Shown: positions 1-36,240 of the stretch, in pieces
Numbering within the stretch: the first letter of the stretch is position 1
How the letters are laid out: each line of letters begins with the position of its first letter
Origin: Cyanophora paradoxa CCMP329
Taxonomy: Eukaryota > Plantae > Glaucophyta
Assembly: GCA_004431415.1 (NCBI GenBank)
Contig: QPMI01000492.1
Span: forward strand, 1 to 55,474
Reading direction: 5' to 3'
DNA length: 55,474 bases
Program-made: the position numbers and the translations under genes
Notes under the pieces: generated by a model
Told to the model about the DNA's origin: nothing
Databases searched by the model: none
What the model saw: the letters and a program-made list of their open reading frames with translations, nothing else

Positions 1-75
1 GATCCTCCACTAGTACTGGCTCAATATTTATACAAGATAATCTACAAATCAATAATCCTAATATGAAGAATATTA

Positions 76-164
76 ATCAATTTTTTTTTTTTTGGTGAAT
101 TACCGGCCACAGCCTCTAGTCTACTCCAGCACTGTGGGGGCGTGTACAGGCAAGGCATCAATTT
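76..164 (-). mobile_element. Short 5'-truncated poly(A)-tailed retro-insertion with 8-bp target-site duplication
   Basis: T13 tract at 81-93 followed by about 63 bp of GC-richer sequence. ATCAATTT occurs at both 76-83 and 157-164. Confidence 0.5.
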
Positions 165-223
165 ATCGACAAACCTGGCGATATATCAATATATATTAAT
201 ATATCAAGTATCGACAGATTTAT

Positions 224-564
224 ATCGACTGATTTTGTCGACCGATTCTGTCGCAGAATCAGTCGATAAAATTCGACTGATTCGGTCGACCGATTCTGGC
301 GCAGAATCAGTCGATCGACTGATTCTGTCGATCGACTGATTTTGTCGACCGATTCTGGCGCAGAATCAGTCGATAAAATTCGACTGATTCGGTCGACCGA
401 TTCTGGCGCAGAATCAGTCGATCGACTGATTCTGTCGATCGACTGATTTTGTCGACCGATTCTGGCGCAGAATCAGTCGATAAAATTCGACTGATTCGGT
501 CGACCGATTCTGGCGCAAAATCAGTCGATCGACTGATTCTGTCGATCGACTGATTCTGTCGACC
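224..564. repeat. 107-bp tandem array (3 units plus a partial unit) built from an alternately oriented TCGAC(T/C)GATT(C/T)TG core, forming nested palindromes
   Basis: Units start at 224, 331, 438 and 545. Contains the perfect palindrome CAGAATCAGTCGATCGACTGATTCTG. Confidence 0.9.
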
Positions 565-614
565 AAGTATTGCAATACTCCAAAAGTGCAGATATATCCC
601 AGCTCACCGTTAAA

Positions 615-1859
615 ATGCAGGAGGGCTTCGGGTCGACTTCGCTCGCCCTGAGTCGACTTATGCGCGACCTGAAGCAGATGATAAAGGAGGAGACCAAGGG
701 GCGGAAGCGCGTCTTAATTGCCGTCTACCAGGAGGGCCTCAACAGGATCAATCACATCGAAGCCCTAAGGCGCGAATTCGGCTCGGCCATCCGTCACTCG
801 GGCGTCTCGTCGAACGGAGGGGCGCAGGTGGCCCGCCTGGCGGACGCCAACTCGCGCCTCGAGATTCCCGGTACCTTCCGCATGCAGGATTGGTGGGAGG
901 CCGAGGCCTTCAGGAATTACGGGGCCTTCATAGACAACGGGATCAATTCCCAGAGCCCCAAGGCAAACTGGCTGGTACCCAAGGCCTACGTCGATAAATT
1001 GGTTGACAGGCCTGCAGCCCCTTACACCAAAAAGATCACCAAAGGCATCGAGTACTGGGCGCCCGAGCCAGGCCAGCCCGTCTTTGCATCGCAGAACTAC
1101 GAGTGGCACATGGCGCCGGGGGCGAGCCAGGCCGTCAGCACCGTGGGCGTTGCCGTACCGCAGCTGGCGGCCGTGGCGCATACAGGAGAGTACCAAGATC
1201 TAAAAGGGAGGCCGACGATACCGACAATTCCAGCAACTTGGGCGTGGGATAACATCACGGGGAAGCCGAGCACGTACCCCCATGCAGATCACCAGCACAC
1301 CATCTCTCAAATCAGCGACTGGACGGCCCCCGACTTGTCGAACATCACCGTGGACTGGGAAACTCAAGTTACGGGGAGGCCAACCACCTTCCCCCCCTCG
1401 ACTCACAGTCACAACGTGGACTGGGAAACTCAAGTTACGGGGAAGCCTCTCACCTTCCCCCCCTCTACGCACAGTCACACAGAGTACTCGCTCACCGGCC
1501 ACGGGCACAGAAACGTGAACATGGATGCTTACATTCAACACGGCACTTTCTTTCATACGTACTCTGCGTCCACAACTTTCGATCTCAACACAACATACAT
1601 TGTCACGTTCAATATGAGTTTCTCGGAGGAATACGACGCTGGTGGCGGGTTGGGGGTACCCGCAAACACGCTACCAAACGTAACAGTTACCCCATCCATA
1701 AAACTTGGAGTGGATGTCGACATGACAGTGAATGTCTACGACGTCACCTTCACCGGATTTGTCGTCAGAGTGAGGTTCAGGCCCACGATGACAGAAACGA
1801 TCATCGAATCTAAAAGGCTCACGATCTACTGGATGGCAGCGGGCAAGCTGCGGATGTAA
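615..1859 (+). CDS. Virus/phage tail-fibre-like protein with phage tail repeats and a C-terminal H-type-lectin/gp53-like head
   Basis: Motifs PKAYVD, LAAVAHTGEYQDLKGRPTIP, WDNITGKPSTYPHADHQH and 2x VDWETQVTG(R/K)PxTFPPSTHSH. C-terminus IQHG..VTFNMSF..PNVTVT..VTFTGFVVR..IYWMAAG. ATG at 615 in an AAAATG context. Confidence 0.75.
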   Translation: MQEGFGSTSLALSRLMRDLKQMIKEETKGRKRVLIAVYQEGLNRINHIEALRREFGSAIRHSGVSSNGGAQVARLADANSRLEIPGTFRMQDWWEAEAFRNYGAFIDNGINSQSPKANWLVPKAYVDKLVDRPAAPYTKKITKGIEYWAPEPGQPVFASQNYEWHMAPGASQAVSTVGVAVPQLAAVAHTGEYQDLKGRPTIPTIPATWAWDNITGKPSTYPHADHQHTISQISDWTAPDLSNITVDWETQVTGRPTTFPPSTHSHNVDWETQVTGKPLTFPPSTHSHTEYSLTGHGHRNVNMDAYIQHGTFFHTYSASTTFDLNTTYIVTFNMSFSEEYDAGGGLGVPANTLPNVTVTPSIKLGVDVDMTVNVYDVTFTGFVVRVRFRPTMTETIIESKRLTIYWMAAGKLRM

Positions 1860-1883
1860 TCGATTTTCTGATGCAATCCAAAA

Positions 1884-2711
1884 ATGTCAGTTGCTGTTCC
1901 TTTGTTCACCTACGCTGCCAGCGTGAATCACAAGGGCGATCACACGATTAAGGAGACCACCCTCGGAAACCAGGCCACCGAGACCCCCTACAACGCCACC
2001 GCCGTCCCCTTCACCGAGGCCGACCTTATCTGCGTCGGCGAGCTGCGCTGCGATAAGATGCGCACACGGGAGGGCGGGTCGGCCGTGCCGGGGCGCGTGA
2101 AGACGCAGAGGCTCACCGTCACGAACGGCTCCTGGGACGGGAGTGGTCACACCACAAACGCCCTGACCTTTAACGGTACTGCCGACGGGGAGGGGAATGC
2201 GGCGCTCTACGTGCAGGGGGGAGGGGCGGACGTGGTGGGCGGGCTGCGGGTCAACGGGGCCGCAACAATTACGGGCTACCTGAAGCACCCAAAGCCGGCT
2301 TTCTGCGTGGGCCTGAAAACAACGTTTGTAACACCAGCGGAAAAGGGGGTCATCAAACCATGGGGGTGGGCGTGGATCAACACGGGAGGCTTCAATACGA
2401 CGGAGGGCACATTCACGGCACCCGTGAGCGGGGTGTACAAATTTACGCTGTCGGCAACCAGTGCTGTCGCAGGGGCCCTTTCCGTCACGCTGCGGAGAAA
2501 CGGATCGGAAGGCGTGGATGGTGCGAAACCCTGGGCGTACACAAGCGAATCCGGCGATAACCGCAACCTTGCATTTACGTTCATGTGCACTCTGGCACAA
2601 GATCAGTACATCGATCTTTACTCCTGGAGTGGTCAGTACCTGGGCGAGGGATTGAGTGTCACACCCAGTGGCTTCACCATATTCACTGGCGAGCTTGTTT
2701 ACATGACGTGA
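1884..2711 (+). CDS. Fibre-like protein with C-terminal C1q/TNF-like domain
   Basis: PAFCVG...NTGGFNTTEGTFTAPVSGVYKFT...VTLRRNG...FTIFTGELV is the C1q signature. It is preceded by the fibre shaft motif ALYVQGGGADVVGGLRVNG. Confidence 0.8.
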   Translation: MSVAVPLFTYAASVNHKGDHTIKETTLGNQATETPYNATAVPFTEADLICVGELRCDKMRTREGGSAVPGRVKTQRLTVTNGSWDGSGHTTNALTFNGTADGEGNAALYVQGGGADVVGGLRVNGAATITGYLKHPKPAFCVGLKTTFVTPAEKGVIKPWGWAWINTGGFNTTEGTFTAPVSGVYKFTLSATSAVAGALSVTLRRNGSEGVDGAKPWAYTSESGDNRNLAFTFMCTLAQDQYIDLYSWSGQYLGEGLSVTPSGFTIFTGELVYMT

Positions 2712-2729
2712 GTCTTGGTGTAGAACGAC

Positions 2730-4763
2730 TCAGAGGCCGTACTTGGCCTTAAGGTGCGTCATCAGGCTGCTGATGTCGCCCGCGGAGCCGGAGCGCCCGA
2801 CAATGATGATCTCAGCGACAAAGGCGTTGAGGTACCCGCCCCAGACACCAATGTTCCTCCCAATGAAGCCGGATGTGCGGGCCTGTGCAAGGGGCAGCCG
2901 GTAGAGGGTCCCGTACCTCCACGCGCCCGGGATCGCGGTAGCGCCCCCGCCCTGCAGCGAAGACCAGAACGTACGCGACGTGTCCGTGAACTGGCATATG
3001 AAGACGCTGTAGGAGGATGTCGATGTCGTCTGGGGCGTGGTCGTGTACGCACTGTACGTCGTGGAATTCGGGCTGACGCCTGTGACGATCCGACCCGGGT
3101 CGTTCAGGTCGTGCATCGCGTAAATGATGCCGGATACGTCCGATACCACGCCAATGTTCCAGTAGTTCGTGTGATCTACGCTGCTTATGGCCTTCACTAC
3201 CAACGCGACCAGGAACCCATTCGGGTAAGCAACGTTGTTGAACCGCGACAGGTGCGCCGAAAAGTCTAGCCACTGGCTGGAAGCCGACGTGAAGCGCAGC
3301 GCCGGCTTGCCGTTGCTGGCGTTCGCGACGAAGGTAGGGCGGTTTGCCGGCGTCGACTGCGTTGCGGACTCTGCGGTGTTCGCGAGGTTCTGCCAGCTGC
3401 TGACCGCTGCGCCGTCTGCAAGCGAGAGGGACGAGGCGTCGAAGTGCTGCACCAGATCTGTACCGAACTGAGCGGCAACGGAGAAGAGGGTGACGCTGCT
3501 GCTTCCCGAGGAGGGGCCCTCCTCGCCCACCTGGTTGACGCCCTTGACGGTGTAAGTGTACGTGGCCCCGTAGACGGCCGTCGCGTCCGAGTAGGGGCTG
3601 GCGCTGGCGTTCGCGAGGAAGGCGCCGCCCCTGTAGATGTTGTAGGAGACGGTGACGCCCGTCGCCGGCGCGGACCACGCGAGCACCACGGGCAGCAGCT
3701 GGGGCGCCCCTTCCGTCGGGGTCGCGGTGAGCCCCGCGGGCGCCGCCGGGTCCGTGGTGACGTAGACGGCCACGCTTGTGAGCCCCTCCCCGCCCAAGTT
3801 CGTCGCGGAGATCTGGTACTCGTACCCCGTACCCCAGACCGTGGTCGCGTCGCTGTAGGAGTTGGTTGCGGAGTCTGTAAGGTAGGCCCCATCCCTGTAG
3901 ATCTTGTACCCCGTCGCCCCCGTGGGCGCCGTCCACGCTAAGCTGACGGGCTGCTGCTGATCGTCGGGTGCAGTCGCCGTCACGTTCGTGGGTGCCGCCG
4001 GCTTCGTCCAAACAATGAGGGGATCGGACTTTTCGTATTCGACCCCGCCCACGATGCCAGCCACCTGGTAGGAGTACTCCGTGCCCCATGCAAGGGCAGT
4101 GCTATCATCGATGTACGAGGTAGACAGGGCACTGCTTGCAAATCCGATTGGCGTGCCGTTCCTGTAAATTCGAATCGAGTCCACACCCTCCATCGCGACC
4201 CAGTCGATTGTGATGACGATGGTGGGTTTCGGGAAGCCCGCAGACGCGGGGCCGCCCCCTGCGATAAAATCGCCGTAGGTCTGGGCCGTGGCAGTCGTGA
4301 GGGTGGTGTAGGCTTCGATCTGCGGGCTGAAGCCGCCTATGCCTTGGAAGAGAATGTAATTGCTCATGGCACCCTCGTGGGTGTAGAGAAGCGACTGTGC
4401 GTAGGTTGTGGGCGGGGCTTTGCCATCGGAGCCCGTGCTGCTGCTGCCTTGTTCGCGAACTGCCGCCACTCGATAAAGTCGCTGGGCCCCCAAACTAAAG
4501 GGCGAGTCCGTGTAGGTGACAGTTGGTGCGTTCACCGTGGCCACGAGATCCCAGGGGCCGTTGATGCTGGTAGCCCTGTACACCTTGTACTTGACGGCAT
4601 TGGTGACGGCGACCCAGTTCAGTTGAAATCCGTAGGTGCCGCCCCCGTTATTGAGCACGGAGCCCGATCGCACCTGGGGCCTGCCCACAGTCAGCGAAAT
4701 TGGCTCCACGCCGTACTGCGGGGCCTGCACCACCTGCTTCTTCACGAATACGAAGCGGGGCAT
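2730..4763 (-). CDS. Multi-fibronectin type III protein with C-terminal LamG/concanavalin-like domain (virion surface/adhesin-like)
   Basis: Repeated FN3 patterns such as LAWTAPTGATGYKIYRDG..SYSD..YEYQISATN. C-terminal domain starts LVQHFDASSLSLADGAAVSSWQNL. 677-aa uninterrupted ORF. Confidence 0.8.
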   Translation of the reverse strand: MPRFVFVKKQVVQAPQYGVEPISLTVGRPQVRSGSVLNNGGGTYGFQLNWVAVTNAVKYKVYRATSINGPWDLVATVNAPTVTYTDSPFSLGAQRLYRVAAVREQGSSSTGSDGKAPPTTYAQSLLYTHEGAMSNYILFQGIGGFSPQIEAYTTLTTATAQTYGDFIAGGGPASAGFPKPTIVITIDWVAMEGVDSIRIYRNGTPIGFASSALSTSYIDDSTALAWGTEYSYQVAGIVGGVEYEKSDPLIVWTKPAAPTNVTATAPDDQQQPVSLAWTAPTGATGYKIYRDGAYLTDSATNSYSDATTVWGTGYEYQISATNLGGEGLTSVAVYVTTDPAAPAGLTATPTEGAPQLLPVVLAWSAPATGVTVSYNIYRGGAFLANASASPYSDATAVYGATYTYTVKGVNQVGEEGPSSGSSSVTLFSVAAQFGTDLVQHFDASSLSLADGAAVSSWQNLANTAESATQSTPANRPTFVANASNGKPALRFTSASSQWLDFSAHLSRFNNVAYPNGFLVALVVKAISSVDHTNYWNIGVVSDVSGIIYAMHDLNDPGRIVTGVSPNSTTYSAYTTTPQTTSTSSYSVFICQFTDTSRTFWSSLQGGGATAIPGAWRYGTLYRLPLAQARTSGFIGRNIGVWGGYLNAFVAEIIIVGRSGSAGDISSLMTHLKAKYGL

Positions 4764-4802
4764 TTTCCTCTACGATCCGAAAAAATATCTGCCCCGGGGT
4801 AA

Positions 4803-5483
4803 ATGACTTCCAACTGGTACCAGACCCTCAGCGGCTCACTTGACGTTGGCAACAACACCAAGGATTTCGCGCGCATCTCCTCTGGCAGCTACGTCGACGT
4901 CTTCCTGCAGAATCCCGTCGTGATTCAGGCCGTTCAGAACGCCTACGCCACGCCCAAGATTTACTCCTACCAGCTCTTCTTCGACCCTCTGAGCCTCAGC
5001 GCAGAGGTAATCGAGCTGCTGCACGAATCAGGACTCGTGAAAAAGGTGGCGCCTGCCACGGCCACAGCCAACGTCCTGCGCTGTCTCGAGGTAAAGTTCA
5101 GGGAGACGGGGTACGGCCCCACCGTAAACCAGTACACCAGTACCGATCTGCCGGGTACGGGTGCATACACGGCGCGGGGTACGCTCAAGGGCGACGTGCT
5201 CTTCACAAAATTCAACCCGAGTCCCGTGACCCTGGGGGCCCTCTACACTGGCGGCAATCCGCGCGCTTCCGGGTTACCCCGCTTCCCCTTCACCTTCTTC
5301 AGGTTTCAGGTCTTCCCCCTCTCCTACGCCGCCGACCAGCCCCACTTCAGCACGGGCGCGAGCCTCTGCGCTGAGCTGCGCGAGTGCTCGATTTCCTACA
5401 GGCACACCACCGGCTCCGACGCCGTGCAGCCCGCGGCCCGCATCTCGGGCATCGGCAACGACATCGCCCTCTTCTACGGATAA
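4803..5483 (+). CDS. Unknown protein, paralogue of 5507-6289 (possible structural protein)
   Basis: 226-aa intronless ORF sharing the blocks QNPV, SGL(V/L)KK, LE(V/L)KF, NPR..PR..FT and AEL.E..Y with the next ORF. Confidence 0.7.
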   Translation: MTSNWYQTLSGSLDVGNNTKDFARISSGSYVDVFLQNPVVIQAVQNAYATPKIYSYQLFFDPLSLSAEVIELLHESGLVKKVAPATATANVLRCLEVKFRETGYGPTVNQYTSTDLPGTGAYTARGTLKGDVLFTKFNPSPVTLGALYTGGNPRASGLPRFPFTFFRFQVFPLSYAADQPHFSTGASLCAELRECSISYRHTTGSDAVQPAARISGIGNDIALFYG

Positions 5484-5506
5484 TCTTTCTCATTCGAGAT
5501 CGCAAA

Positions 5507-6289
5507 ATGCCGACCACCTCGGCCACCATCGTGAAGACTGTGCTGCCTACCCCCGATTTCTACGGCGACACCGCAGCGGCCAACGCTGGGACGGATTCCG
5601 TGGTCTGGGACGGCAATTACGCCTCCATGCTGACCGTGAAAATCCAGAATCCCGTCATGCTGCGCGTCACATCCAACGATTTCGAGAATCCCGCCTCCTG
5701 CTCCGTGTACGTGTACTTTGACACCGACTCGGGCGTGAGCGCGGACGAGGCGGAGGCCCTCTGGCTCTCGGGCCTGTTAAAAAAGATAGAGCCCTCCGTG
5801 CCAGATCGGGCCGCGATTCGCGTGCTCGAGCTCAAGTTCACTGCCAACACCGCCCTCACCCGCACCTTCAACGGCGGCACCAAGACCCACATAGACGGCG
5901 CCCCCATCAGCAGCGCACACAAGACGACCCAGGCCGTCCCCTTTGAGATGTACAACCTCTGGAAGATGACCGCAAAGGAGATGATGACGAATGCCACCAC
6001 GGGCGGAGTCTCGGGTACCTCGTTTTCCTACGATTCCTCGAATCCCCGTACCCAGGTCTGGCCCCGGCTCCTCTTCACGAAATTCACTTTCAAATTGTAC
6101 AACAACATTGCGGGTATGCCTACCTCTGGAATGGTCGTGGGTTCTACCCTCATGGCCGAGCTGATCGAGGCGGAGGCTGACTACACGACTGCCACCACCA
6201 ACCCTGCCAACGGCACCGCTACGAACTACGTGGCCTGGAGCACGATTGACCGCGAGTACGACACTAAGATTCACACCACTAGCGTCTAG
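5507..6289 (+). CDS. Unknown protein, paralogue of 4803-5483
   Basis: Starts MPTTSATIVK at AAAATG 5507, 23 nt after the stop of the previous ORF. Homology blocks as above. Confidence 0.7.
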   Translation: MPTTSATIVKTVLPTPDFYGDTAAANAGTDSVVWDGNYASMLTVKIQNPVMLRVTSNDFENPASCSVYVYFDTDSGVSADEAEALWLSGLLKKIEPSVPDRAAIRVLELKFTANTALTRTFNGGTKTHIDGAPISSAHKTTQAVPFEMYNLWKMTAKEMMTNATTGGVSGTSFSYDSSNPRTQVWPRLLFTKFTFKLYNNIAGMPTSGMVVGSTLMAELIEAEADYTTATTNPANGTATNYVAWSTIDREYDTKIHTTSV

Positions 6290-6644
6290 ACTGGCTAAGC
6301 TGCACTAGCACCTGTGCCGCCTCCATCATCTCCCGAATCTCCTCGCTCTTCTCCTGTAAATTGGCGTACCCCCTCCTCTTCTTGCGAATCTCCGACATTG
6401 ATGCCCAGCGCAGGTTCTCCCTCCTGTAGTCCAGCGGGTTGCCGTTGATGTGTTCCACGTAGCGTCCACGTGGCGACTTCCCGAGGATCAGTTGGGAGAG
6501 GTAGTGCTTGCGCCCTCCGAACGTCTTGCTCACCCTGTCCCTGTCCACTCTCCAGGGAAACTCCAAGGCACTCGGGGGTACGTCCGAGTTGACCAGGACG
6601 TTGTAGGCGACGTCTTGCGAGTCGGTGCACTGGAGCAGGGCCAT
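6279..6644 (-). CDS. HNH_3-type homing-endonuclease-like protein with atypical residues
   Basis: YLSQLILG...YVEHINGNPLDYRRENLRW versus the family pattern VDHING(N/D)xLDNRxxNLR. Confidence 0.75.
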   Translation of the reverse strand: MALLQCTDSQDVAYNVLVNSDVPPSALEFPWRVDRDRVSKTFGGRKHYLSQLILGKSPRGRYVEHINGNPLDYRRENLRWASMSEIRKKRRGYANLQEKSEEIREMMEAAQVLVQLSQSRR

Positions 6645-6668
6645 TTTGCCCTAGGTTCAGAAAAACCT

Positions 6669-6741
6669 GGGACTTGGGACTTGGGACTTGGGACTTGGGA
6701 CTTGGGACTTGGGACTTGGGACTTGGGACTTGGGACTTGGG
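6669..6741 (+). repeat. (GGGACTT)10 heptamer array, G-quadruplex-competent
   Basis: 10 perfect copies followed by GGGAAGAGTT. Confidence 0.95.
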
Positions 6742-7072
6742 AAGAGTTGAAACCCAGGTCCCGGCCCAGACTTTCTCCAGGATCAGAAATTTGTCAGACA
6801 AGTCAGGTGAGTTTTTCTATCGACTTTTTTACTCCTACCACCCCTCATACTCTTTTTTACTCGTAGTCTTTTTTACTCGTATCCCATCTCATACCCTCCT
6901 TCTCTCGACATCTCGCACGAAAACTCCTACCCCCCTTCGTCTGGAATGTCACCAGAAACGTCGTATGCAGATTTCCGTACCCCTGTCTAAGTCTGCCCGG
7001 TGGTTAGGGACTTGGTGCAGCAAACTCTCAGATCCAGAGAAATTCTGGGCCCAGACCCTGAGTCTAACTCTT

Positions 7073-7110
7073 CCCAAGTCCCAAGTCCCAAGTCCCAAGT
7101 CCCAAGTCCC
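7073..7110 (+). repeat. (CCCAAGT)5 heptamer array, inverted relative to 6669-6741
   Basis: 5 perfect copies preceded by AACTCTT. Confidence 0.95.
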
Positions 7111-7184
7111 AGGATCGCGCCAAGTCATAACTGAATAGTCGGCCAATTTTTACAAGTATGTACAATGGAATGACGCAATACTAT

Positions 7185-8255
7185 TTACATCATCTCGAGA
7201 TCAGAGTCATCGTCATCGGAAACCAACTCAATGAGGCCCTCGGGCGCCGACTTAAGGGGAATGCGGGGAAGGGCCTGCGCTGCCTGCACCAAGTCCTGCC
7301 GCTCCTGCTCGCGCTGCGCCGCCAAGGCCGCTGCCGCCTCTGCCTCGCGCTGCCGCTGAGCCTCGATGCGCGCCTTGAGCTCGGCTGCCTCCTTCTGCTT
7401 GCGCTCGGCGACGCGGGCCTTGTGCATCTCGCGCTGCTTGATCCGCTCGTGGCGCCGCTTGCGCTCCAACTCCTTGCGAAGCTCGTTGCAGAGGACGCGC
7501 TTCTCAATGGTCTTGACGTGCTGAGTCAGGCGCTCGCTGTAGTGTGACGTCACGCGAGAACGGGCAATGCCAGCGCCGAGCTTCAAGTCCTTCTCGTGTG
7601 CCTTGGCGGGGTCCTTGACGCGCTCGGAGTTGTCGGTGAATGACGTGGTCTCCATGAACTTCTTCTTGACGATTGACTTGGTCTTGATAATGCGGCGCTT
7701 GCGAGTCGGGTTGTCGTTGTCGCCTTCAGAGTCAGAAGACGACTCAGAGTCGTATGGAATCGGCACGTCAAAGTCGATGAAGTCGTTGATGTCAGACTCG
7801 GCGTCAGAGGCCTCGGACTTGGCGTCGTCGACGGGCTCGGGGGCGGGCTCGGCGACGGGCTGAGGGGCAGATGACGACGATGACGGAGGGGGGTAATTCG
7901 TGAAGACTTGAGGGGGATAGGCCCAGGCGAGCGTCTCGGCGGCAGACTCGGCGAAAAGCTTGGGGTCGCCCCAGCCAGTGGGAGTCTTGACCCAGCCGGG
8001 GACGGGGGGCACGTCGACGGGGGGCTCGGGCTTGGGTTGCTTGGCCTTGGATTTCTTGGCCTTGGACGTGAAGGCGGACTTGGGGAGAAGTTGCACTTCG
8101 GGGCCAGTGGCGCGTAAGATGGCATAATTGTAGATGTACCCCAGAGCGTCGGCGCGCTGCTCCATCTCAGGGGTAGCCCCTTGAGTGCCACCGGAGTTAG
8201 CCCACGTTGCTTGGACAAAGGCGAAGTCCTCAACAAGCTCAGAAGGAATCGACAT
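7185..8255 (-). CDS. Orphan nuclear protein: Pro-rich/acidic region, basic NLS-like patch, coiled coil, C-terminal SIM-like motif
   Basis: ATG at 8255 (MSIPSELVEDF) directly after a GCGCAG acceptor-like site. Contains PTRKRRIIK, an E/R/K/A coiled coil and LIELVSDDDDSD at the C-terminus. Confidence 0.65.
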   Translation of the reverse strand: MSIPSELVEDFAFVQATWANSGGTQGATPEMEQRADALGYIYNYAILRATGPEVQLLPKSAFTSKAKKSKAKQPKPEPPVDVPPVPGWVKTPTGWGDPKLFAESAAETLAWAYPPQVFTNYPPPSSSSSAPQPVAEPAPEPVDDAKSEASDAESDINDFIDFDVPIPYDSESSSDSEGDNDNPTRKRRIIKTKSIVKKKFMETTSFTDNSERVKDPAKAHEKDLKLGAGIARSRVTSHYSERLTQHVKTIEKRVLCNELRKELERKRRHERIKQREMHKARVAERKQKEAAELKARIEAQRQREAEAAAALAAQREQERQDLVQAAQALPRIPLKSAPEGLIELVSDDDDSDLEMM

Positions 8256-8600
8256 CTGCGCAAAGGGAAAAGAGATCAGCAAAGGCAAAACGTGAGGTGA
8301 CTGTGAGGGCGGACTTGCACGGATTCGGAGAGGCGGAGTTTGCTTGGGCTGAGAGAGGCGGCGAACCCGTTTCAAGAGTGAGCCAAAATGGCGGCGGACC
8401 GCGGTTTTGTTGCCGATTTTTTTTGCGGTCTAGTTGGCAACAGAAACGTTGCGAACTGGCCCGGAAAAAAGTTGGGCCGAAGGTAAAAAAGTTGGGCCGA
8501 AGCCCCCCTACCCCGCTGAGCCGGCCTGACGGAAATCGCCCGAGTGCGTCCGCCGAAGGTCGAGTCTCGGATGGGGGGTACACCCTCAGGGGGCCCCCTC

Positions 8601-9092
8601 TCATTCTGGCAGTACCCTCTGAAATGGATTTTCGAAGCCGTGTAATTGCTGGTATTCATCGTACCCCTCAAGCGAGGGGCTGTACCCCACTGTTACCTGT
8701 GGGAGCCCCATTGCGCGCCTCCGTCTGTCCTCTCTCAATTGGCTGCGGAAAAATCTGCGTCTGTCTTGGCTGTCGCGTGTCGCGCCATCTGTGTTGGATC
8801 GATCATTGTTAGGGTTGTGAGTGTCACGTACTAGCTGTACGAAATATTCGCGTAGGTCAGCTGGTAGGTTCTGGAAGTTGTCTGCTGCGTAGAGCTGTAT
8901 CCATTCCCTCAACCTGAATGGGAACTGACTGGCAAGCCCCAGCGCGTGATTGAAATCGGGCTCCGGCGACACGCCAGGGGGGACTGAGATGTGCCAGCGC
9001 CAGAAATCGGTCAATCGTGTGAACAATTGATTGATTTCAAATGGGAAATCGTAGAACAAGGGCGGGGGCGGCCCCGGAGGTTGGTTAGCCAT
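8601..9092 (-). CDS. Orphan protein of about 163 aa (MANQPPGPPPPLFYDFPF...)
   Basis: AAAAATG start with the TTTTCGGA motif 11 nt upstream, like the other island genes. Confidence 0.6.
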   Translation of the reverse strand: MANQPPGPPPPLFYDFPFEINQLFTRLTDFWRWHISVPPGVSPEPDFNHALGLASQFPFRLREWIQLYAADNFQNLPADLREYFVQLVRDTHNPNNDRSNTDGATRDSQDRRRFFRSQLREDRRRRAMGLPQVTVGYSPSLEGYDEYQQLHGFENPFQRVLPE

Positions 9093-9123
9093 TTTTCTCC
9101 CCTTCCGAAAATTTCCCCGCTTT

Positions 9124-9770
9124 TGAGTCCAGACTCTGATTTTAACTCTTCCCAAGTCCCAAGTCCCAAGTCCCAAGTCCCAAGTCCCAAGTCCCAAGTC
9201 CCAAGTTTTCCCTCAATTTCACGCGTAGAAAACGCACTTTTCGGCCTTTTCCGATTTTTCTTTTCTCGCGATCGCAGAAATGCCCCCGATCTCGAAATCG
9301 CGATCGAAAAGGGTCGCGATCGGGAGAAAGTCGCGATCACCACCGAGGGCCGCAAGAGTGGCCTTAGGGGGTAGGGCTCGCAGTAGGGAGATTCCCTCGG
9401 GGTTAGTCTAGCTGGAGACCCAATAGGGGGGAGGTAAGCTAGACTTGTCGTGTGTTTGTAGGCCTAGGCCTAGGGTAGGCAGATAGCATTAGCTGTTTGT
9501 CAACTTGGGGCACCAGTCCCCTAATACACTAGGGATTACTGAAAAAAAAAATGAGTCCAGACTCTGATTTTAACTCTTCCCAAGTCCCAAGTCCCAAGTC
9601 CCAAGTCCCAAGTCCCAAGTCCCAAGTCCCAAGTTTTCCCTCAATTTCACGCGTAGAAAACGCACTTTTCGGCCTTTTCCGATTTTTCTTTTCTCGCGAT
9701 CGCAGAAATGCCCCCGATCTCGAAATCGCGATCGAAAAGGGTCGCGATCGGGAGAAAGTCGCGATCACCA
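9124..9770 (+). repeat. Two identical 219-bp direct repeats (9124-9342, 9552-9770), each with (CCCAAGT)8, flanking a 209-bp poly(A)-ended insert
   Basis: Copies read TGAGTCCAGAC...GCGATCACCA. The insert at 9343-9551 ends in an A10 run. Confidence 0.9.
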
Positions 9771-10050
9771 GGGTCGCGATCGGGTCGCGATCGCCGCGAT
9801 CGCCAGCCTCGGAAGGGGTACCCCCACGGCCGTTACGGCGGTTATAAGAACCTCCGCAATCCAAGCGTCACGTCCGAGTCTCGAGCTCTCGAGGTTGCCT
9901 TTTCGGGTTTGGCCCATTGATGGCCCTCATATATATTTAGTTTAACATCGATACAATCATATATACAAATGCATATATCCTAGGCCTTCCATATCTGTAG
10001 CGATATATATATATATATATGGATATCGATCTCATTTCCTCGATTTGCAG

Positions 10051-27350: not shown

Positions 27351-30300
27351 CTACGGGAGGCCAAAGAGGGCCTTCTCGACGTGGTCGGGCCGGCGCTTCG
27401 TGGGGCGGATGTACCCCAGGAAGTCCAGCTCCTTGACCGAACGGTAGAAGCGCGCCCTGCCGCCCGGTCACTCATCTGCGGGAGGGGACACGGGACGGCA
27501 TTTCTGGAGTGGCGCGGCGCACTGGAGCTCCTTCAGGTCGAGGTTGGCCGCCTGCTTCGCCTCCGAGAAGGATACGAACCTGCGGGGGGTATGGGATTGC
27601 GGAGGCGACGAGCTCGGGGGGTACAGCACGCACCAGTCCGCGAGGGAAACCAGGCGGCCGGACTTGCTGAAGATGTCGTACCTGCCCGCGGGTCGAATCC
27701 GGCCGGGGTACACAATCATCGATCCATTTTCGGCGCACGCGAGTGTGAGGTCGTCCCAGCAGTGGGCCTTGGCGCTCGTTTTCGGCGCAGGCGCCTTCCC
27801 CTTGTCCTTGTCCTTGTCGCTGGGGCCCGCCCCATCCCCCGTCCCCTCCTCCACGCAGCACTCGCACTGCGGGCGGGCGTGAGGCGCGAGGGGTACAAGC
27901 GGGGCTTGACGGGCGTGCGGGCGGGGTACAGGCGGGCCTGCAGGATGGGCTGGGGGTCGGACAGGGCCCGCTGGATTTGCTTCCGGATGGGCGGCGAGAG
28001 CATCTGAGGAAAGCAAAGCTCAGAAGGTGAATCCAAGCGGGCTACGACCCCGCACCTGGGCGAGCGTTCCAGAGCCCCCGAACAGGAACGTTTCGTGGAG
28101 GGGTAGGCGCGAGGGCGGCTTCAGATTCTCCCTGCAGCCCGGGGGGTCGGCAGGAGGAGGAGGGTACTTGCATAACGGGGCCTGGAGGGGTACAGGGCCA
28201 GCGCACTCGCAGAAGACGCGGAAGAAATCGTTCAGCGCCGACTCGAGGGCCGCGTGCTTCGCCATGCTCGCCTTCTGCTCGTACCCCCTTAGGATCGATC
28301 CGGGGGTACAGGAGACTCGCGGGGGGTACGAGGCGCACCGTGGCGGACGGGGAGGCAGAGCCGCCGGTCGCTGTCGCGAGCATGACCCTGCGCCGCCCGA
28401 GGCTCGGCGGGGTACCGAAATAATACTGAGAAAACGCCGGGGGTACCGCCTCCTCTTGGCGGCGCTCCACGTCGTCGCGTCCTGCGCGGCGTCCTTGGCC
28501 GCCCCCGCCTCCTAGGAGGCGCTCGGTGTGAGGCGGGGCGCGGGGAGGAAGGGGGGGGGGGGGGGAAGAGGGGGGGAGGGAGGAGGGGGGGGGGAGGGGG
28601 AGGCGGGAGGCCCGTTCACCTTGCTCGGCCCGTCCGCCTGTTCGTCCTGTCGCGGGGGGTACCGTGATAAGACGCGGGACGGGAGACGGGTAAACAGGCG
28701 GCGGTGGCCGAGGGCCGTACCCCCCCGGCGGCCTTGGGCTCGGGCTGGAGGATCCCGCGGAGCCTCGCGGCGTCGTCGCGGAACAGTTGGTCCTCCTGGG
28801 AGGCAGGCGTGAGGGGTACGGTGATGATTTGGGACAGGGGGGGGCGGGTGGGGGGTACGCGTACCGACTCGAGCTGCTCGACCCACTTCTCGCCTAGGGA
28901 CTTCAGCGCGTCCGTCCGCAGCAGTCTGCGAGAAGGTTCCTCGCCCTCGCCCTCGAGAGAAATGTGGGGGTACACAGAAGGGGACGGGTACCGGAGCGCG
29001 GAGAGGAGACCGTTGTGCGAGGCCCCGCCCAGGAGGGTACCGGAAAGGTACTCCAGGTAGAGCTGCGAGGGTTGAGACGGGGCGCGTTGTACCCCCAAAG
29101 AATCTAAACTCCGGCGGACCTGCCGCCGGGAGCTGGCGCTGGATTCGGAGACAGAGGACGAGGAGGAGCCCGAGCGGCCTGCCGCGGGTTCGATTCCGGA
29201 GGAGGACGGAAGGCGAGCGGGCGGGGGGCGGGGCGGGGCGGGCACCGCCGGCGGCCGCGCGGCTCGTCTCGTGCCACAGGGCCATCGCTACTCGGGCGCT
29301 AAGACAGGGCGCGTCACGGGCGAAGAGATAGACACCGTAGTACGGAGAGCAAGTCGAGAGGGTACCGTATGCGGGCCTGGCAGGTGGAGAGGAAGACCCG
29401 GGGTAGAAGCGCGCGAAGCAGGCCGTCCGCCCCCTCCTCCAGGTCCGCCGCGGCGACCTGGGGCGGGCTCGGGGAGGGGTACGGGGGAGCCGGGGGGAGT
29501 ACGGGCGCACCTCGAGGCCCGGAACGGAGTAGAGGTGCGCCTGGGGCCCGGCGAGGCGCCGGAGGGAGGGGAGGGCCCGGATGCGGGGGAGGAACGAGGG
29601 GGGTACGACCTCCTCGGAAGCGGAGGGGCTGGCCGCGGTAGCCCCCAGGAGGCGATGGACGGCGGCCAGGTTAGCGGGCGCCTTGGGGGGGCACAGCCCC
29701 GCGACGGGGTTCCCGTAGTAGTGCTGCATCGCCGCCGCCTGGGGGGTACGCGTTCGGGGCGGGAGGGGTACCGATCAAGCGGAGCTTGGGGGGTACCTGA
29801 ATGGAGCGGGAGAGCCCGGAGACGGAGTGGCTGTGCTGGAGGAACTGGTCCGAGAGGAACGCCCAGACCTGCCGGCCCGAGGGGTACGTCAGTTCCGAGC
29901 GGGGACAACAGGCGCCGGGACGGGTACGGGCCTCGCCGCCCAGGACGATGCCGTGGTCCCCGTCCAGGAACACCTGTATCCCCGTGAGGAGCAGGAGGAG
30001 GAGGCGAGAAGCAGGGTACAGGTCGCCGCACGTGGGTCACGATCGCATCGAAGTACGCCTGCGCCAAAATATGAGGGAAGCGAGCGAAGAATTGGTGAGA
30101 GAGAAAGCAGCGGGGACCTGGGGTCTCGGCATGTGGAAGTGGCGTATGCGAAGCAGGACCGAGACGGAGCGCGGCAGGAGGCGCTGGATGGATCCCTGTA
30201 CCCCGCCTCAGCCGCTGCGGGGGGCTCCAAGGTGCGCGGGGGGGTACCGCGGCGCCGCCGAAGGCCGCGGAGCCGGAGACGCCGGCGACGAGGACGAAGG

Positions 30301-31681
30301 GTACGCGTATGAGGTTCTCGCTGCGCCGAAAGTTAGGGCCGAAGCGGGCCGGGGGTACAGGGACCGCGCCTCATCGCGAAGACGATGTCGTGAAGGACCT
30401 GAGGGGAAGGCGGGGTACGGGAGTCAAGTCGGCGGAAGGCGGGGGGGGTACTTGCCTTGGCGGGGAAGCTCGCGACGTCCTCGATCAGCACGCACATCCG
30501 CAGCGGCTCTGCCGCGGGCGCGGCTCGAGAGAAGAAGGGGGGGGCGGGGAGGCGGCGGCGGGGAGGAGGGGTACCGGCCGTGGGGTCGGACTCCGCGCGG
30601 CGCCGCGCGAGGGTCTCGTACCACGTGCAGAGCGAGTGCATGTCCTCCCTCTGCGGAAAGCGGCTCAGGAAGCGGGGCGTGGGGGGGCGGGACCCGGATC
30701 GAATCTGCCTGCTGCATGATTCGGCGCGCGGCGTCCTCCTCCTCGTCGCTCTCGATGCCGGCGGCCTCCGCCGCGGCCTCCTCGTCGTCCGCCGGGCCCG
30801 CCGCCGCCGCCGCCGCCGCCGCTGCCGCCGCCGCCGGCTCGCCCTCACCCTTCGCGGGCAGACAGACGCGTGGGCCGCGGCGGAAAGGCGCAGGCGGGAC
30901 GGGCGGCGGACCTGGAACCCTTCGACGAGGGCGCGCATCGCCGCGCGGACGGAGCGGCAGGCGGCGCTGCGGAGGTAGGAGCAGCGCGCCCGGTCCTTCA
31001 GGCGGCTCCGCAGGTGCCGGTGCAACCCTTCCATGACCCCGCCCTGCGCGCGTGCGGCTCGAGATCTAGAGATGCGCGGCGGCTCTTCGCGTGTTGTCGC
31101 GGCGCGCCTGCTCGGTGCCGCTGATGCCGGCGTGGATGAGCGCCGTCGGCAGCTCGTGGAAGCGAGCCTCGGGCAGGCGCAGCGAGCTCGCGTCGCTGGG
31201 GCCCTCCGCGGGCTCAGCGCCGTCCTCCGGCGGCTTCACGCCAGCCACGAAGAGCCCCACGTCGCCGAAGGTCCGCTCGTTGAGCTCGCCGACCACGGTC
31301 TGCGGCCCGGGCGAGCTCGGCGACGGCCGGGCGAGCGGAGGCGGGCGGGCGCACGTCGATGTCGCGCTTGATCTTCCTCCATGACGCCTGGTACGCCTGG
31401 AAGCGCTTCTCGATGGCGGGAGCGTCCTGCGGCGAGAAGAGCCCGCCGAAGCCCTCGAACTCGACGGCGCCGGCATCTTGCTTCTTGAGCGCTGCGGGCG
31501 GCGATCGATTCGCGCCGCGGATGCTCGCCGCAGCGCCGGGCCGCACCCTGGATGCTCTTGCCGGATTTCCGCAGGATGTACGTGCCCTGCGCGCCGCTCG
31601 AGCCTCGCGCCCCACGCGCTCGGGCGTGCGCACCTTCGTGAGGTCCAGCTGGGGCGCCCCGCTCGAGCCGCTTGCCGCCAT
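27351..31681 (-). CDS. ORC3: Origin recognition complex subunit 3 (multi-exon)
   Basis: ELPTALIHAG, VLIEDVASF, FLSDQFLQHSHSVS..AAMQHYYGNP and LPLHETF. C-terminal WH domain SGRLVSLADW..ARFYRSVKELDFLGYIRPTKRRPDHVEK. Confidence 0.88.
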
Positions 31682-31837
31682 CGCACGCTCGGATAACCCC
31701 GGTTCGACTCCGGAGAGAGCAGGCTTCAGCCAAGTGAACGTGGCGGCCGGCCGCAGCTCTCGCGGACGATCGCGAGGCCGGCGGTTGAAGCAAGCGAAGC
31801 GATGGCGGCGACGGAAGAGCAAGAATCCGCGTCGATC

Positions 31838-33256
31838 ATGAGCCTGCCGGGTGCGCGTTCGCTCTCCGGTCCTGACCATTCGGCGCGCCTGTTCGCGCGC
31901 GCCCGCCACTCCAGCAAGCGCGCTGATGCACTGCCGCTGGATCGCAGATGAAATCTTGCTGCTGGTGATGGAGAAAACGGCGGCGGGCAGCGGCACAATG
32001 GCCGTGTTGCGGGGCTTTGCCTCGGCCCGACGCCGCTTCCAAAAGATCGCGCACGCTTCCCCGAAGCTTTTTGAGGAGCCCATCTTCGTTGCCCATCGTC
32101 CAGAAGACTGCTCGGTGAGTCGATGTCCACCGCAACTGCGCGCCGTCGCTCGCGCCAACGTTCGGTGCAGCGCAGTTTCGGATCGATATCCGAGTGCTCA
32201 GAAGAAGATTCAGATCTCGGCGATTGCGACGCGCGGCCGCAGCCGGCCGGCGACAGTATCTTGGACGTCGCGCGGTTGTCTGCGCGCTTCGGCGGCCGCA
32301 TCGAGCGCCTTCACCTTGACGCTGTCAGCTGCAGTTCCCGCATCGACTTCGACAGTACGACCGACTCTGACCATGGCGGCAAGGTCGACCGCGTCCTCTT
32401 GAACGTCCTTCAAGCCTGCCCCAACATTACGCATCTCTCCCTCTCGAGCTCAAGCAGCGACGCTCGCGAGCACGGTTCTTTATCGACCCTCGGCCGCAGA
32501 GCTTACAATCGCGCGGTCTACGGGCCCCTTGCCGGGTTGGAGGAGCTCCCCGAAGGATTCTCCCTTAAGCTTCCCCGCCTCCGCCACCTCGACCTCTCCA
32601 GCCGCACCGTACCTCTCCCGGCCCTCCGCTGCCTCATCAGCGCCTGCTCTGCCTCCCTCGAGTGCCTCTTTCTCCGGTGAGTGCTCTTCGGTGTCTTTCC
32701 GCTCTAAAACATTTTCTCAGAGCTTGCCTGACCACCAGCATGCGCATGTGCATGTGCATGCGCAGGGACACGCGTGTGATCGAGCCGGCGTCTCACGGCG
32801 GAGCTCGAGGTCTTCCGATTCATTATTGCAAGCCCCTTCAGGTCGCCGCTGCCCTCGAGCGGATCAATCGCGAGTGCGTGCGCGCGCGCGCCAGTCACTG
32901 ATCGGATCCTGGTCTGCAGCTGCCTCGAGCTCTCTGCCTTCTTTGGGCTGACTTGGCGCCTTGCGCGCGCGTGCAGCTTCCCCCACCTAAAAAGCCTCGA
33001 CCTTTCCTACTCGAACGCCTGCGCCGACATCCACGCGCTGCGCCGCCTCATCGCCCGGCTCCCTGCCCTCCGCGATCTGTACATCGTGCGCCAGCTGCGC
33101 ATGCATATGCAGTGCCCAGCCCGTGGGCCGTGGCTCAGCCCGTTACCGCAGGTGAAAGCTGGTGCGTACATGCAGGTCGATAATGCGGTGCAGCTGGCGG
33201 AGAATGTGAACCGCCCGGGCCGGCTCGTCATCTACAAAAGCCTCGTGCGTATGTAA
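31838..33256 (+). CDS. F-box/LRR(RNI)-like protein (multi-exon)
   Basis: IADEILLLVM..ASARRRF (F-box-like), CPNITHLSL, LPRLRHLDLS, SLECLFL and LPALRDLYI. Confidence 0.55.
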
Positions 33257-33917
33257 AATCGCTCATTGCAATTGCGAATGTATATGGTGGACTCGCTGCT
33301 CCGCAGCCCGACGTCGACATAGAGCCCGGCCCGCTATGCTGCGCCATCTCCGCGAGATTATCAATCCCAATCGCGACTCTGAAGATCTAGATCTTTTTAT
33401 CAACTATATCTAGATTCTTATTATCTTATAATTATTATCGACTTCAGCGCGACATGGGGCCCGCTGCGCTGCGCCACGTCCGCGAGCATTTCAACCGGGA
33501 CGGCCGGGTCGACGTGACACGCCTGGCGTTCCCCGCCTTCTTAAAAGGTGCCCTCTGAATCTAGATCTTATGATCATGATCAGGGTGGTGCCCTCTAGAT
33601 CTTCTGGATCTCTTACGAAGTGCCCTCGAGCTCTAGATCTTATGATCAGCTGCAGCGGACAGCTGATCGCGCAGCTGATCATGCGAATACTTGTACTTGT
33701 GGTTTCTGATCCCTCCCTCGCCTCCGGATCCTCGAATTCGCAGCACTCTTCTGCGGCCCCTACGGGCGCGACGTCGACGCCGCGAGGCGACTTGTGGACG
33801 AGCTGGGCGTCGCGCCTCGCGCACGCTTCCAGGAATCTTCAATCGGCCCCTGCAGCTGGGTGATCGTGATCATGAGCCCCTCCTTGGCCCGCCATTACAG
33901 CTAACTCTAGCCCTGCG

Positions 33918-36055
33918 ATGTTCCTCGCGCAGGTACCCCCCTTCTTTCGAGACTGCATCGAGCAGGAGAACGTCCCCGAGCCGCTGCGCGCGGAGGGATT
34001 GACCGCTCTCCACGCCCTCGTCGGGGGCTACTACTACGATTTCCATGTCGACGGTGCACGAAAGGCAGGCCTGGCCCCGGCCCACTACTACCTACACCAC
34101 CCCACCCCGCAGCCCCTGCCCCTTAATTAATTATATTATAAGCTTTCCCGCTGACTCTCGCGCATGCGCAGGTGATTCAGGAGTGGCAGCTTGCCTCCCT
34201 TGTCGACGCGCCGCTGCGCTCCGGAATTCGAACGGGCCGTACCCCCCTCCACCTTGCTGTAGAGACCCCGAACCCTCTCCTCGTGACCCTTCTGGAACTT
34301 GGCGCCGACCCGCTTCGCCAGGTTCGAATTCGCGATCGTCGCAGCCCGCGGTTGCCCGCCCGCTCGCTCGCGATCACGATCACGCAATCTTCTCACACGG
34401 CACGCGCGCGGGGGGCAGGACGCGGCCGGTTCCACCGCGCTGCACATCGCGTGCAAGCGCGCCAACATCGACGCCGTGCGATCTCTTCTGAAGTTCGGCG
34501 CTGTGCCGCTCTGCAAGGTGCGGCTCCAGCCTGGCAGCCCCGAGCTCGAGGCCATAGCTAGCTCGCTCTGGTCGCGCCCCGAAAGGACGCCGCGGGCGCC
34601 CGGAGAGATAGACGGTAGAGCTCGAGTACGTAGTTAAGACTAGGCTGCGCCCGGCACGCGTGCCTTGCTTGCACTGGGTGTCCTTTATCAACTCTACTTG
34701 ACTCTCAGAGTCTTAACTCTACCGCCACACCTTATTACATATACATACAAGCCACCTTACTATCTCTCCGCAGGTACAGGACGCGGCGGGCGCCACCGCG
34801 CTGCACATCGCCTGCGGGCGCGGGCACGTGGACGTGGCGCGGGCGCTGCTGGAGTGGGCGGCGGGCGCGGGCGCGGGGGCCGACGTCCTCTCCGCGAGGG
34901 ACGGCGGGGGCCGCACCCCGCTGCAGCGGCTCGTACACGGCGGCAGCGATGATGAGCCCAGCAGGCCTGCAGCGGACGTTAACGCGTCGCTCATCGCAAT
35001 CCATGCCGTCCGTGCGTTCTCTAGATCTAGATCGTAGATCTAGATCTTAGATCTAGATCCGACCCATCCGAGCTCGAGCTCGCCCGCCGCAGAGATCTTG
35101 GAGCTGGACGGCCCGCGCCTGGAGGCCCTGGGGCCCACCAATTATCCTATAAGGTAATGCATTATTAATTAGCACTTCTTCAAAGGCCCTTGTTTGAAAG
35201 CCTGCCCTTACCAATATTGCTACGTGGTTAGGTGCGTATTTACCAGCTAGAATTAATGATTCAATCTCAGTAACAACAAATCGTGCCTCCTCTTTATCAT
35301 TCCAACAAGATATTATTTTAATTTTTCCCCCGTCTATTCTATCAGTCCATAGGGTTTTCCATCCTGGAGGAGGCCGTCCGGGGCCGGGAGGGCGCCGAGC
35401 CGCTCCTCCACTTCGCGGCGCGGAGGGACATGCCCGGGGCGGTGCGGGCCCTCCCGGGAGCCGGCGCCGACCCGGCCCCCGCCTCGAGGTTCGAATCCGC
35501 ACCCTAGGCCTCCCTAAGCTTACGCCTGCTGAGAGTTGAACCCGCCCGGGCCCCGCCCCCTCCCGAGATATAAGTCTTACTATAAACCCCCGTTGCTAAT
35601 TATAAGCCTTGTTATAATCCGCCTCGAGGTTCGAATCCGATGATCCGCACCCTCCCTGATCATGATCCTCCCTGATCGTTGCCTACGCTTAAGCCTGCGC
35701 GCGTCCCCCGCACGTCGTTGCTAATTATAAGCCTTACTATATAAGCCCCCGTTGCTAAATACAAGCCTTGTTATAAGCAGGCCCCTGCCCGATCGTTGCC
35801 AAATTATTATATAGGCCCTTGTCGACGCCGACTTTAGCTTCAGGGCTTCCCCCGCAGGACAGGGGCGGCGCGATGGTTCTGCAGGCGGCCGCGCAGTCCC
35901 GGGTGCGGGCGGTGCAGCGGGCGATCCGCGCCTTCGCCGGCGAGCGGGGCGTGCCCCTCGACGCGATCGGGGACACGAGCTACCGGCTCGCGGCCGACGT
36001 CGACGCCGGGAGCTCCCGCCCAGAGAAGCGGGCCCGCACCAGTCGCCGATCCTGA
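33918..36055 (+). pseudogene. Ankyrin-repeat gene, probably disrupted
   Basis: GRTPLHLAV, GSTALHIAC, GATALHIACGRGHVDVARALL and PLLHFAA. One exon is frameshifted by a 221-bp insert. Confidence 0.7.
35141..35361 (-). other. uvrD: AT-rich bacterial uvrD/pcrA helicase fragment (Rickettsiales-like) inserted in a host exon
   Basis: [54 protein letters not shown] matches the UvrD C-terminal domain. Abrupt drop in GC content. Confidence 0.85.
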
Positions 36056-36240
36056 TCATGACAGCTAGCTGTATGTGTGCTCAAGAGCATTTGGGCTTTA
36101 CCGCTTTTTTGGAGCTCCCGATCGCTCGAACTCGTGATCGATCGCGAGTCAGATCTAAAAGCCGATTGCCAAGTTTCGAGCCTCGGAGTCGACCTTTTTT
36201 TGAGGGACCCTCGAATCTCATTAATATTTTGGCCCAGACA

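Follow-up and report, generated by a model that had tools for sequence, protein, structure and literature searches.

A truncated copy of a multicopy, putatively polinton-like element in the glaucophyte Cyanophora paradoxa encodes a predicted pair of T7-type OB-fold proteins

Positions 1–55,474 of contig QPMI01000492.1 from the glaucophyte alga Cyanophora paradoxa CCMP329 (GenBank assembly GCA_004431415.1), a stretch that we call the window, contain a virus-like island that spans nucleotide (nt) 597 to about 9925 and holds eight stop-free open reading frames (ORFs) at a coding density of 80%. Our analysis suggests, with a probability of roughly 0.6, that this island is a left-truncated copy of a multicopy, integrated polinton-like virus (PLV) with a double-stranded DNA (dsDNA) genome, whose core genes reside in the missing left arm. 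Its place among the PLVs is unproven, as the sequence read contains none of the genes that define them. Two adjacent genes, ORF4 and ORF5, are predicted to encode duplicated OB-folds of the type found in gp2.5, the single-stranded DNA-binding protein (SSB) of T7.

Truncation and copy number of the island

The layout of the island is intronless and dense, in contrast to its flanks. Spacings from ORF1 to ORF8 are 24, 18, 39, 23, −11, 540 and 345 nt, in agreement with a first-pass annotation, made from the sequence alone, which had described the first six ORFs as overlapping or less than 40 base pairs (bp) apart. The GC content is 0.59 inside the island versus 0.66 to its right, and a search for transfer RNA genes returned none. 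Host (AT)n runs and C/G homopolymers end at 189, do not occur in 597–9928 and are back at 9929 and 10256, which places the right edge near 9925, approximately rather than to the base. The first-pass extent of 570 to 9930 thus holds on the right, while the left edge lies at 596/597.

This left edge emerges from comparison with other copies. A tblastn search with P0062, a gene model of 1682 residues, matched the window only from residue 1257 (nt 594–597) onwards, at 88%, and three other gene models (P0130, P0133 and P0115) continue upstream of the same residues. ORF1 corresponds to about residues 1257–1682 of this giant protein, its ATG at 615 being an internal methionine, and some 1256 codons of the giant gene are missing from the window copy. 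In sequencing run X15, contigs track the window up to 596 and then diverge into other letters, and another contig begins to match at 597 after 18 unmatched letters. Positions 1–596 are therefore a separate high-copy repeat, which truncates the window copy inside the giant gene; ORF1 is a remnant and not the intact gene of the first-pass annotation, although it is stop-free like the other seven. Since the cut falls within the largest gene of the element, leaving only the last quarter of the giant protein, the left arm and its hallmark genes are missing here, and this copy cannot be autonomous. The earlier proposal that we are looking at the right-hand part of an integrated, fibre-encoding virus-like element is supported. 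The severing repeat, probably a non-autonomous transposon, carries 107-bp tandem units at 210–564, has internal inverted symmetry (partly self-inverted at 75–79%) and is closed by a 14-bp palindrome at 566–579. We considered this palindrome as a viral origin and rejected it, as it sits in the host repeat left of the junction.

Cyanophora paradoxa gene models homologous to ORF4, ORF5, ORF7 or the giant gene occur on no fewer than 61 distinct contigs, a minimum since identical proteins are listed under a single name (21 doubtful labels were checked); the N-terminal part of the giant gene alone has 22 homologue clusters. An intact or almost intact model of the giant gene is present on tig00020941, tig00020734, tig00000525, tig00000217 and tig00021587. 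The order giant gene, ORF2/3, ORF4, ORF5, ORF7 is kept within 10 gene numbers on all 33 contigs that show at least two of these genes, and more than half of the island's words were found in 14 listed DNA runs of one organism. Scans for related loci in IMG/VR, JGI metagenomes and GTDB genomes returned nothing. That the island consists of host genes, or of bacterial or phage contamination joined to the contig, could be argued from fibre repeats that match tailed-phage proteins at 34–38% (228 phage records match the giant protein, all in the ORF1 repeat region) and from a right junction outside the read comparison, which covered positions 1–6650. Dozens of copies on host contigs, the 14 DNA runs, the layout and a gene pair with no prokaryotic relatives in the databases searched make this scarcely credible, and it is already largely refuted. 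The first-pass annotation had raised syntenic single-copy host genes and a chimeric bacterial or phage join itself; neither agrees with relatives on this many contigs or with such a pair.

Read depth varies strongly among copies. Contigs of one sister variant reach depths of 1965 and 5368, compared with 30–45 and 84–108 for the rarest variants, which gives ratios of 52 and 56 in DNA runs of 2019 and 2024 if the rarest contigs are presumed single-copy; the window's own fibre variant exceeds these rarest contigs about threefold. So constant a ratio is consistent with chromosomal copies that multiplied recently, and expansion of the element in the Cyanophora genome in recent times is the likeliest explanation. 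Among the 40 best-supported rows of 625 differences between variants, 29 of the 39 listed coding differences are synonymous and 27 are at third positions; in ORF3, 17 of 21 listed sites are synonymous. Two runs guessed to be RNA yielded only short contigs over the ORFs, at depth 2–9 and mostly from other variants. Overall, the signs of recent activity noted in the first-pass annotation are supported.

The ORF4/ORF5 pair and its predicted fold

ORF4 and ORF5 share 29% identity (E 1e-18), which indicates that they are paralogues. Searches with ORF5 gave 14 homologue clusters from 755 candidates, comprising the window's own, 11 EukProt gene models and two metagenomic proteins, and a profile search of 1.84 billion representatives gave 11 proteins (its own, eight Cyanophora models and two Logan proteins). 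Four metagenomic relatives lie at 38–65%: P0071 and P0072 match ORF4 at 42 and 38%, and P0007 and P0008 match ORF5 at 65 and 62%. The family comprises two lineages 19–27% apart, both of them old and each with metagenomic members. The same genome holds a divergent second subfamily on contigs tig00000114 and tig00020944 (P0006, P0040 and P0102), at 64–68% to ORF5 and nearer to the metagenomic P0007 and P0008 (72–75%). Screening 5.8 billion proteins, 1.84 billion representatives and 185,579 genomes brought up no prokaryotic relative, and neither profiles nor sequences of the pair gave a hit in PDB, Pfam, PHROGs or NCBIfam; a Pfam BLF1 row for ORF5 (E 0.06) fell under the cut-off and was dropped.

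We turn to predicted structures, with a predicted local distance difference test score (pLDDT) of 69.8 and a predicted template modelling score (pTM) of 0.76 for ORF4, and a pLDDT of 54.7 for ORF5. In VIA, the first three ranks for the ORF5 model were T7 gp2.5 (1je5), DUF2815 and the Enc34 SSB, at Z 6.0, 5.5 and 4.5, with root-mean-square deviations (rmsd) of 4.2–4.6 over 116–122 aligned residues (1je5: 4.2 over 116); the swine fever virus protein CP312R followed at Z 4.0. For the ORF4 model, 1je5 again came first (Z 4.0, rmsd 4.3, 116 aligned), tied with Cdc13, and ranks 1, 3 and 4 were of the gp2.5/Enc34/DUF2815 type (Z 4.0, 3.7 and 3.7); by their titles, all but about three of 50 VIA rows for ORF4 are what we take to be OB-fold proteins. 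Phage or giant-virus SSB-like entries also rank high for both models in the Foldseek search of BFVD, where the best ORF4 match has an E of 3e-4 and its named neighbours are phage single-stranded DNA-binding and giant-virus proteins; in PDB, the Enc34 SSB is in the top rows for ORF5, not significantly. A short K-(I)-Y-S strand motif aligns between the pair and the T7 gp2.5/Enc34/DUF2815 family. The two models are not independent, because their alignments share most rows. We consider it very probable that both proteins adopt an OB-fold and, given that fold, likely that they act as SSBs in replication. The first-pass annotation had recognised the two as a pair, which their paralogy supports, but its description of them as unknown proteins gives way to a predicted T7-type OB-fold.

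Capsid folds were also considered, as the first-pass annotation had proposed. OB-folds came first for both models, and no jelly-roll capsid or HK97 entry was among the rows listed in five fold searches, a result that does not exclude such a fold. In a language-model atlas, the nearest neighbours of ORF5 were coat-like clusters of Cressdnaviricota in all seven rows shown (0.83–0.86, recognition 1411), which at scores below 0.9 is a lead only. Together with the low confidence of the ORF5 model, these rows could mean that the models are misfolded and that both proteins are in fact capsid or penton proteins with a single jelly-roll. We regard this as very improbable, as two separate models, one with a pTM of 0.76, both put OB-fold proteins first in an exhaustive structural search. 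Cressdnaviricota differ further from the element, for which an OB-fold is predicted, whose collinear block spans 13 kb or more and includes a 1682-residue gene, and among whose eight ORFs in the window there is no Rep.

A different role for an OB-fold pair is suggested by its setting. ORF4 and ORF5 lie within the fibre block, back to back with ORF3 over a motif-holding 39-nt spacer, and an acidic C-terminal tail is missing from both and from all nine members of the family examined (2–4 acidic residues in the last 25). It is conceivable, then, that the virus has no icosahedral capsid and that the two proteins are SSB-derived nucleocapsid paralogues, polymerising on the genome as a filament or pleomorphic core on which the fibres and the giant coiled-coil protein form a cap. 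Their two old lineages, at 25% to each other and 38–65% to metagenomic relatives within a lineage, and the resemblance of ORF5 to small-virus coat proteins in the atlas would suit such a role. Yet we found no precedent in the literature searched, T7-like SSBs serve replication in the viruses that have them (PMC4889955, accessible parts), and capsid-bearing elements abound in Cyanophora (PMC10120064, supplement), so that we hold a nucleocapsid to be improbable. The broader version is improbable to the same degree: a capsid-less lineage of eukaryotic DNA viruses with an SSB-derived nucleocapsid and swappable fibre tips, which would rely for replication and integration on polinton-like or giant viruses resident in the same host, would have multiplied recently to some 50 near-identical copies in a glaucophyte, and would have relatives in other samples. 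A prediction of the ORF4–ORF5 complex scored 0.00; made without alignments and with the partner fold uncertain, it is evidence neither way.

Fibre genes, putative regulators and repeats

The three fibre-like ORFs of the first-pass annotation are recovered by family searches. ORF1 matches phage-tail families (PHROG 14, 9574 and 5231; best E 2e-9), ORF2 exceeds the cut-off for C1q (PF00386, E 1e-6), and ORF3 matches FN3 (PF00041, E 1e-4, with PF18370 also matched) and, in its C-terminal domain, a virion-protein family (E 2e-8; PHROG 1696 and 10356). This last domain is presumably LamG, a name that Pfam did not yield. Tips differ among copies: P0059 and P0062 have unlike terminal domains, and read contigs bridge 1534–1842 with 322 other letters and also bridge 2245–3586. 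The giant protein begins with His-rich fibre-like repeats, followed by a coiled-coil-like stretch of 640 residues (55% E, K, R, Q and A), a Gly-rich part, in which a single hydrophobic segment lies around residue 1100, and finally the fibre tail; because of this layout, it may be a membrane-piercing or tape-measure-like virion protein. The language-model atlas returned nothing usable for its N-terminus.

Table 1 Features of the island and its left flank (window coordinates)
Feature	Position	Strand	Evidence
High-copy repeat adjoining the cut end, outside the virus-like block	1–596		Tandem-repeat search, read contigs
ORF1, remnant of giant coiled-coil/fibre gene; phage-tail-like repeats, exchangeable C-terminal tip	597–1859	+	Stop-free ORF counted 615–1859
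ORF2, 275 residues, likely trimeric fibre with C1q head	1884–2711	+	PF00386, upstream motif
ORF3, 677 residues, FN3 repeats and C-terminal lectin-like domain, likely adhesin/spike	2730–4763	−	PF00041, PF18370, PHROG 1696, 10356
ORF4, 226 residues, predicted T7 gp2.5-type OB-fold, paralogue of ORF5	4803–5483	+	Model, fold searches
ORF5, 260 residues, predicted T7 gp2.5-type OB-fold, paralogue of ORF4	5507–6289	+	Model, fold searches
ORF6, 121 residues, HNH_3-type protein with altered motif residues	6279–6644	−	PF13392
Non-coding spacer between two inverted heptamer arrays	6645–7184		Repeat search
ORF7, 356 residues, likely early regulator	7185–8255	−	Homologue alignment, upstream sequence
ORF8, 163 residues, no relative detected, upstream motif present	8601–9092	−	ORF listing, family searches
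Right-end region with 219-bp exact direct repeat	9117–9925		Repeat search

ORF6 matches Pfam HNH_3 (E 2e-7, 31 bits against a cut-off of 24.8), which corrects the first-pass count of four unknown ORFs; what needed explaining was three ORFs plus the pair. Compared with a phage HNH protein, it has EH..N..DY in place of the motif DH..N..DN and SE-I in place of the downstream EN, so that D is replaced by E, N by Y, and the N further downstream is lost, at positions that we take to be catalytic. Because three motif positions differ, ORF6 is likely to be a binding protein, an inactive nuclease retained as a DNA-binding regulator; its C-terminal EAAQVLVQL presumably resembles short repressor motifs. 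ORF7 has a variable N-terminus followed by a conserved acidic Ser-rich linker, a basic patch and a coiled coil, as judged from an alignment of homologues (28 clusters, all Cyanophora gene models), with no family in Pfam, PHROGs or NCBIfam. Its ATG is preceded by a pyrimidine tract and CAG, resembling a splice acceptor, which is what might point to replication in the nucleus. For ORF8, neither those three databases nor the related-locus scans gave a relative; the sole locus returned (L008) is a chance match of 16 residues in a tailed-phage recombinase region.

The motif TTTTC[TG]GA, 9–11 nt ahead of AAATG, occurs at four of seven true starts (ORF2, ORF3, ORF6 and ORF8) and is absent from ORF7, a likely early regulator. 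None of 20,000 shuffles reached four (mean 0.006), an optimistic estimate as the motif was defined on the same regions. In the 45.5 kb right of the island, the full pattern does not occur and its core occurs once, so that the upstream motif is private to the island, as the first-pass annotation had it. The same is true of its repeats: the remaining 46 kb of the window lack the two-unit heptamer of the island's four 7-bp tandem arrays, and an exact direct repeat of 219 bp (9124–9342 and 9552–9770) is likewise confined to the island. Each array has a related 33-nt leader (18–26 of 33 positions identical between pairs), and each copy of the 219-bp repeat, which likely belongs to a terminal repeat, carries a leader and an array. 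Two inverted arms with the shared leader (6703–6777 and 7037–7111, 88%) bound the spacer between ORF6 and ORF7, which may serve as an origin or control region. In all, there are four leader-plus-heptamer units (6645–7184, 9117–9634), two of them directly upstream of the motif-bearing ORF6 and ORF8; copies of the element share this array, since gene model P0035 on another contig reads through it.

Elsewhere in the window, an inverted duplication of ~550 nt (29514–30065 and 36290–36845, 92–100% in three pieces) brackets 6.2 kb that include a bacterial-looking C-terminal fragment of UvrD helicase (35056–35595, minus strand; PF13361, E 1e-7). The structure at 29514–36845 could be a foldback or long terminal-inverted-repeat mobile element. 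Further right, a 148-bp tandem repeat at 52803–53337 (3.6 copies, 94%) has the appearance of a coiled-coil gene in which one exon-plus-intron unit is repeated; beyond it, as read by eye, lies a beta-helix-like gene split by AT-rich introns.

Known viruses and the missing left arm

Several sources, accessible to us in part, place PLVs in this host. A supplement lists 366 double-jelly-roll capsid genes for Cyanophora paradoxa, in two clusters (PMC10120064); Table S6 of PMC12220804 lists 156 glaucophyte elements, with A32 ATPase in 139, rve in 85, pPolB in 49, and D5-type and HNH_3 genes in 40 each, and the same paper reports fibres with phage-tail repeats and laminin G in PLVs, one of them from Cyanophora paradoxa. 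Adintovirus-like contigs (PMC8502044) and methylated, silent viral genes with giant-virus insertions (PMC12344493) have also been noted in this species, and the sequence sets of the first two surveys could already include this family. Like PLVs of Cyanophora and other protists, the element is dispersed in many integrated copies in a protist genome and combines intronless, dense genes with a long coiled-coil/fibre gene, phage-tail repeats, lectin-like adhesins and an HNH_3 gene. The window copy differs from them in having no capsid, penton, A32 ATPase, polymerase or integrase gene, being cut on the left; in its duplicated T7-type OB-fold pair; and in a C1q head, a feature not in the main text or table of PMC12220804. 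The first-pass suggestion of a new family or a capsid-less satellite does not stand as worded, given a copy cut in its largest gene in a species with hundreds of capsid genes.

The closest structural matches of both models, the T7 gp2.5/Enc34 ORF6/DUF2815 SSBs and their Nucleocytoviricota members, differ from the pair, which has no significant sequence similarity to them, large insertions, no acidic tail and a tandem arrangement amid fibre genes. T7-like SSBs are described as virus-specific and typical of RNA-primed replication (PMC4889955), so the pair leads us to predict that the missing arm encodes a helicase-primase and not pPolB. A T7-like OB-fold SSB is also reported for mriyaviruses (Gamadviridae), small dsDNA viruses of eukaryotes, but as a single protein (PEV_26 in gamadviruses); their genomes are 35–45 kb long, with HUH endonuclease and VLTF2/3, and integrases are described as absent (PMC11253617). 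No nucleocytoplasmic large DNA virus-like capsid, HUH endonuclease, VLTF2 or VLTF3 is among the eight ORFs of the left-cut copy.

From the start of the giant gene to the right end, the block measures about 13 kb, which leaves room for a core module in a PLV of 14–40 kb. Alternatively, the full element may be only 13–15 kb long and lack capsid and replicase genes, a non-autonomous satellite with its own fibres and SSB pair that depends for capsid, polymerase and integrase on the other polinton-like or giant viruses endogenous to the host. Such helper genes are plentiful in the Cyanophora genome, no gene model among the 22 giant-gene matches is fused to anything left of the giant gene, and none of the six capsid-example contigs in the PMC10120064 supplement, a thin sample of 366, is among the 61. 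However, gene models tell little about the sequence beyond a start codon, HNH_3 occurs in 40 of 156 capsid-defined glaucophyte elements, near the copy number of this family, and three fibre genes are usual in particle-forming PLVs (PMC12220804, accessible parts); we consider a satellite possible but unlikely.

We favour a truncated PLV, against which several points nevertheless weigh. Pfam, PHROGs and NCBIfam returned no ATPase, polymerase or integrase for the eight ORFs, and no capsid gene was seen among them, all in a left-cut copy. The capsid-example contigs, and the presumption and small selection behind the depth ratios and coding differences, count here too. The structural matches reach middling scores (Z 6.0 and 4.0, rmsd above 4, one model at pLDDT 55), and hhalign of the pair against a seven-sequence Enc34-type SSB alignment gave a non-significant probability of 0.8%, both profiles being shallow. 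Missing acidic tails and a place in the fibre block fit a structural role equally well. Finally, the pair is atypical for PLVs, because SSBs of protein-primed viruses are described as having folds other than the OB-fold (PMC4889955) and SSBs go unmentioned in the accessible parts of three PLV surveys. The main texts of two preprints (10.64898/2026.06.19.733378 and 10.64898/2026.10.13.758929) are silent on SSBs and Cyanophora, and neither the element nor a PLV with twin T7-type SSBs is described in the literature covered, which excludes subscription papers and bioRxiv supplements.

In the model that we propose, the missing left arm would carry capsid, packaging, replicase and integrase genes, and whole copies would integrate and later excise or be copied out. 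Replication might use a replicase of the helicase-primase type, with the ORF4/ORF5 pair coating single strands. A factor of the virus or of a helper virus would jointly switch on the genes with the TTTTC[TG]GA motif, under the control of ORF7, read by the host machinery, and of the degenerate HNH protein ORF6, while fibres with exchangeable tips would bind the host surface.

Glaucophyte viruses have so far been known mostly as survey counts. Because dozens of copies persist under purifying selection in a cultured, axenic model alga, this element family lends itself to end-to-end mapping and to induction tests. If a PLV-sized element carries T7-type SSB-like proteins as a tandem pair, this would tie elements of that kind to the replication machinery of giant viruses and mriyaviruses; ORF4 and ORF5 also offer a marker for relatives missed by capsid profiles. 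If the pair were instead a coat, it would represent a new route to a virion protein.

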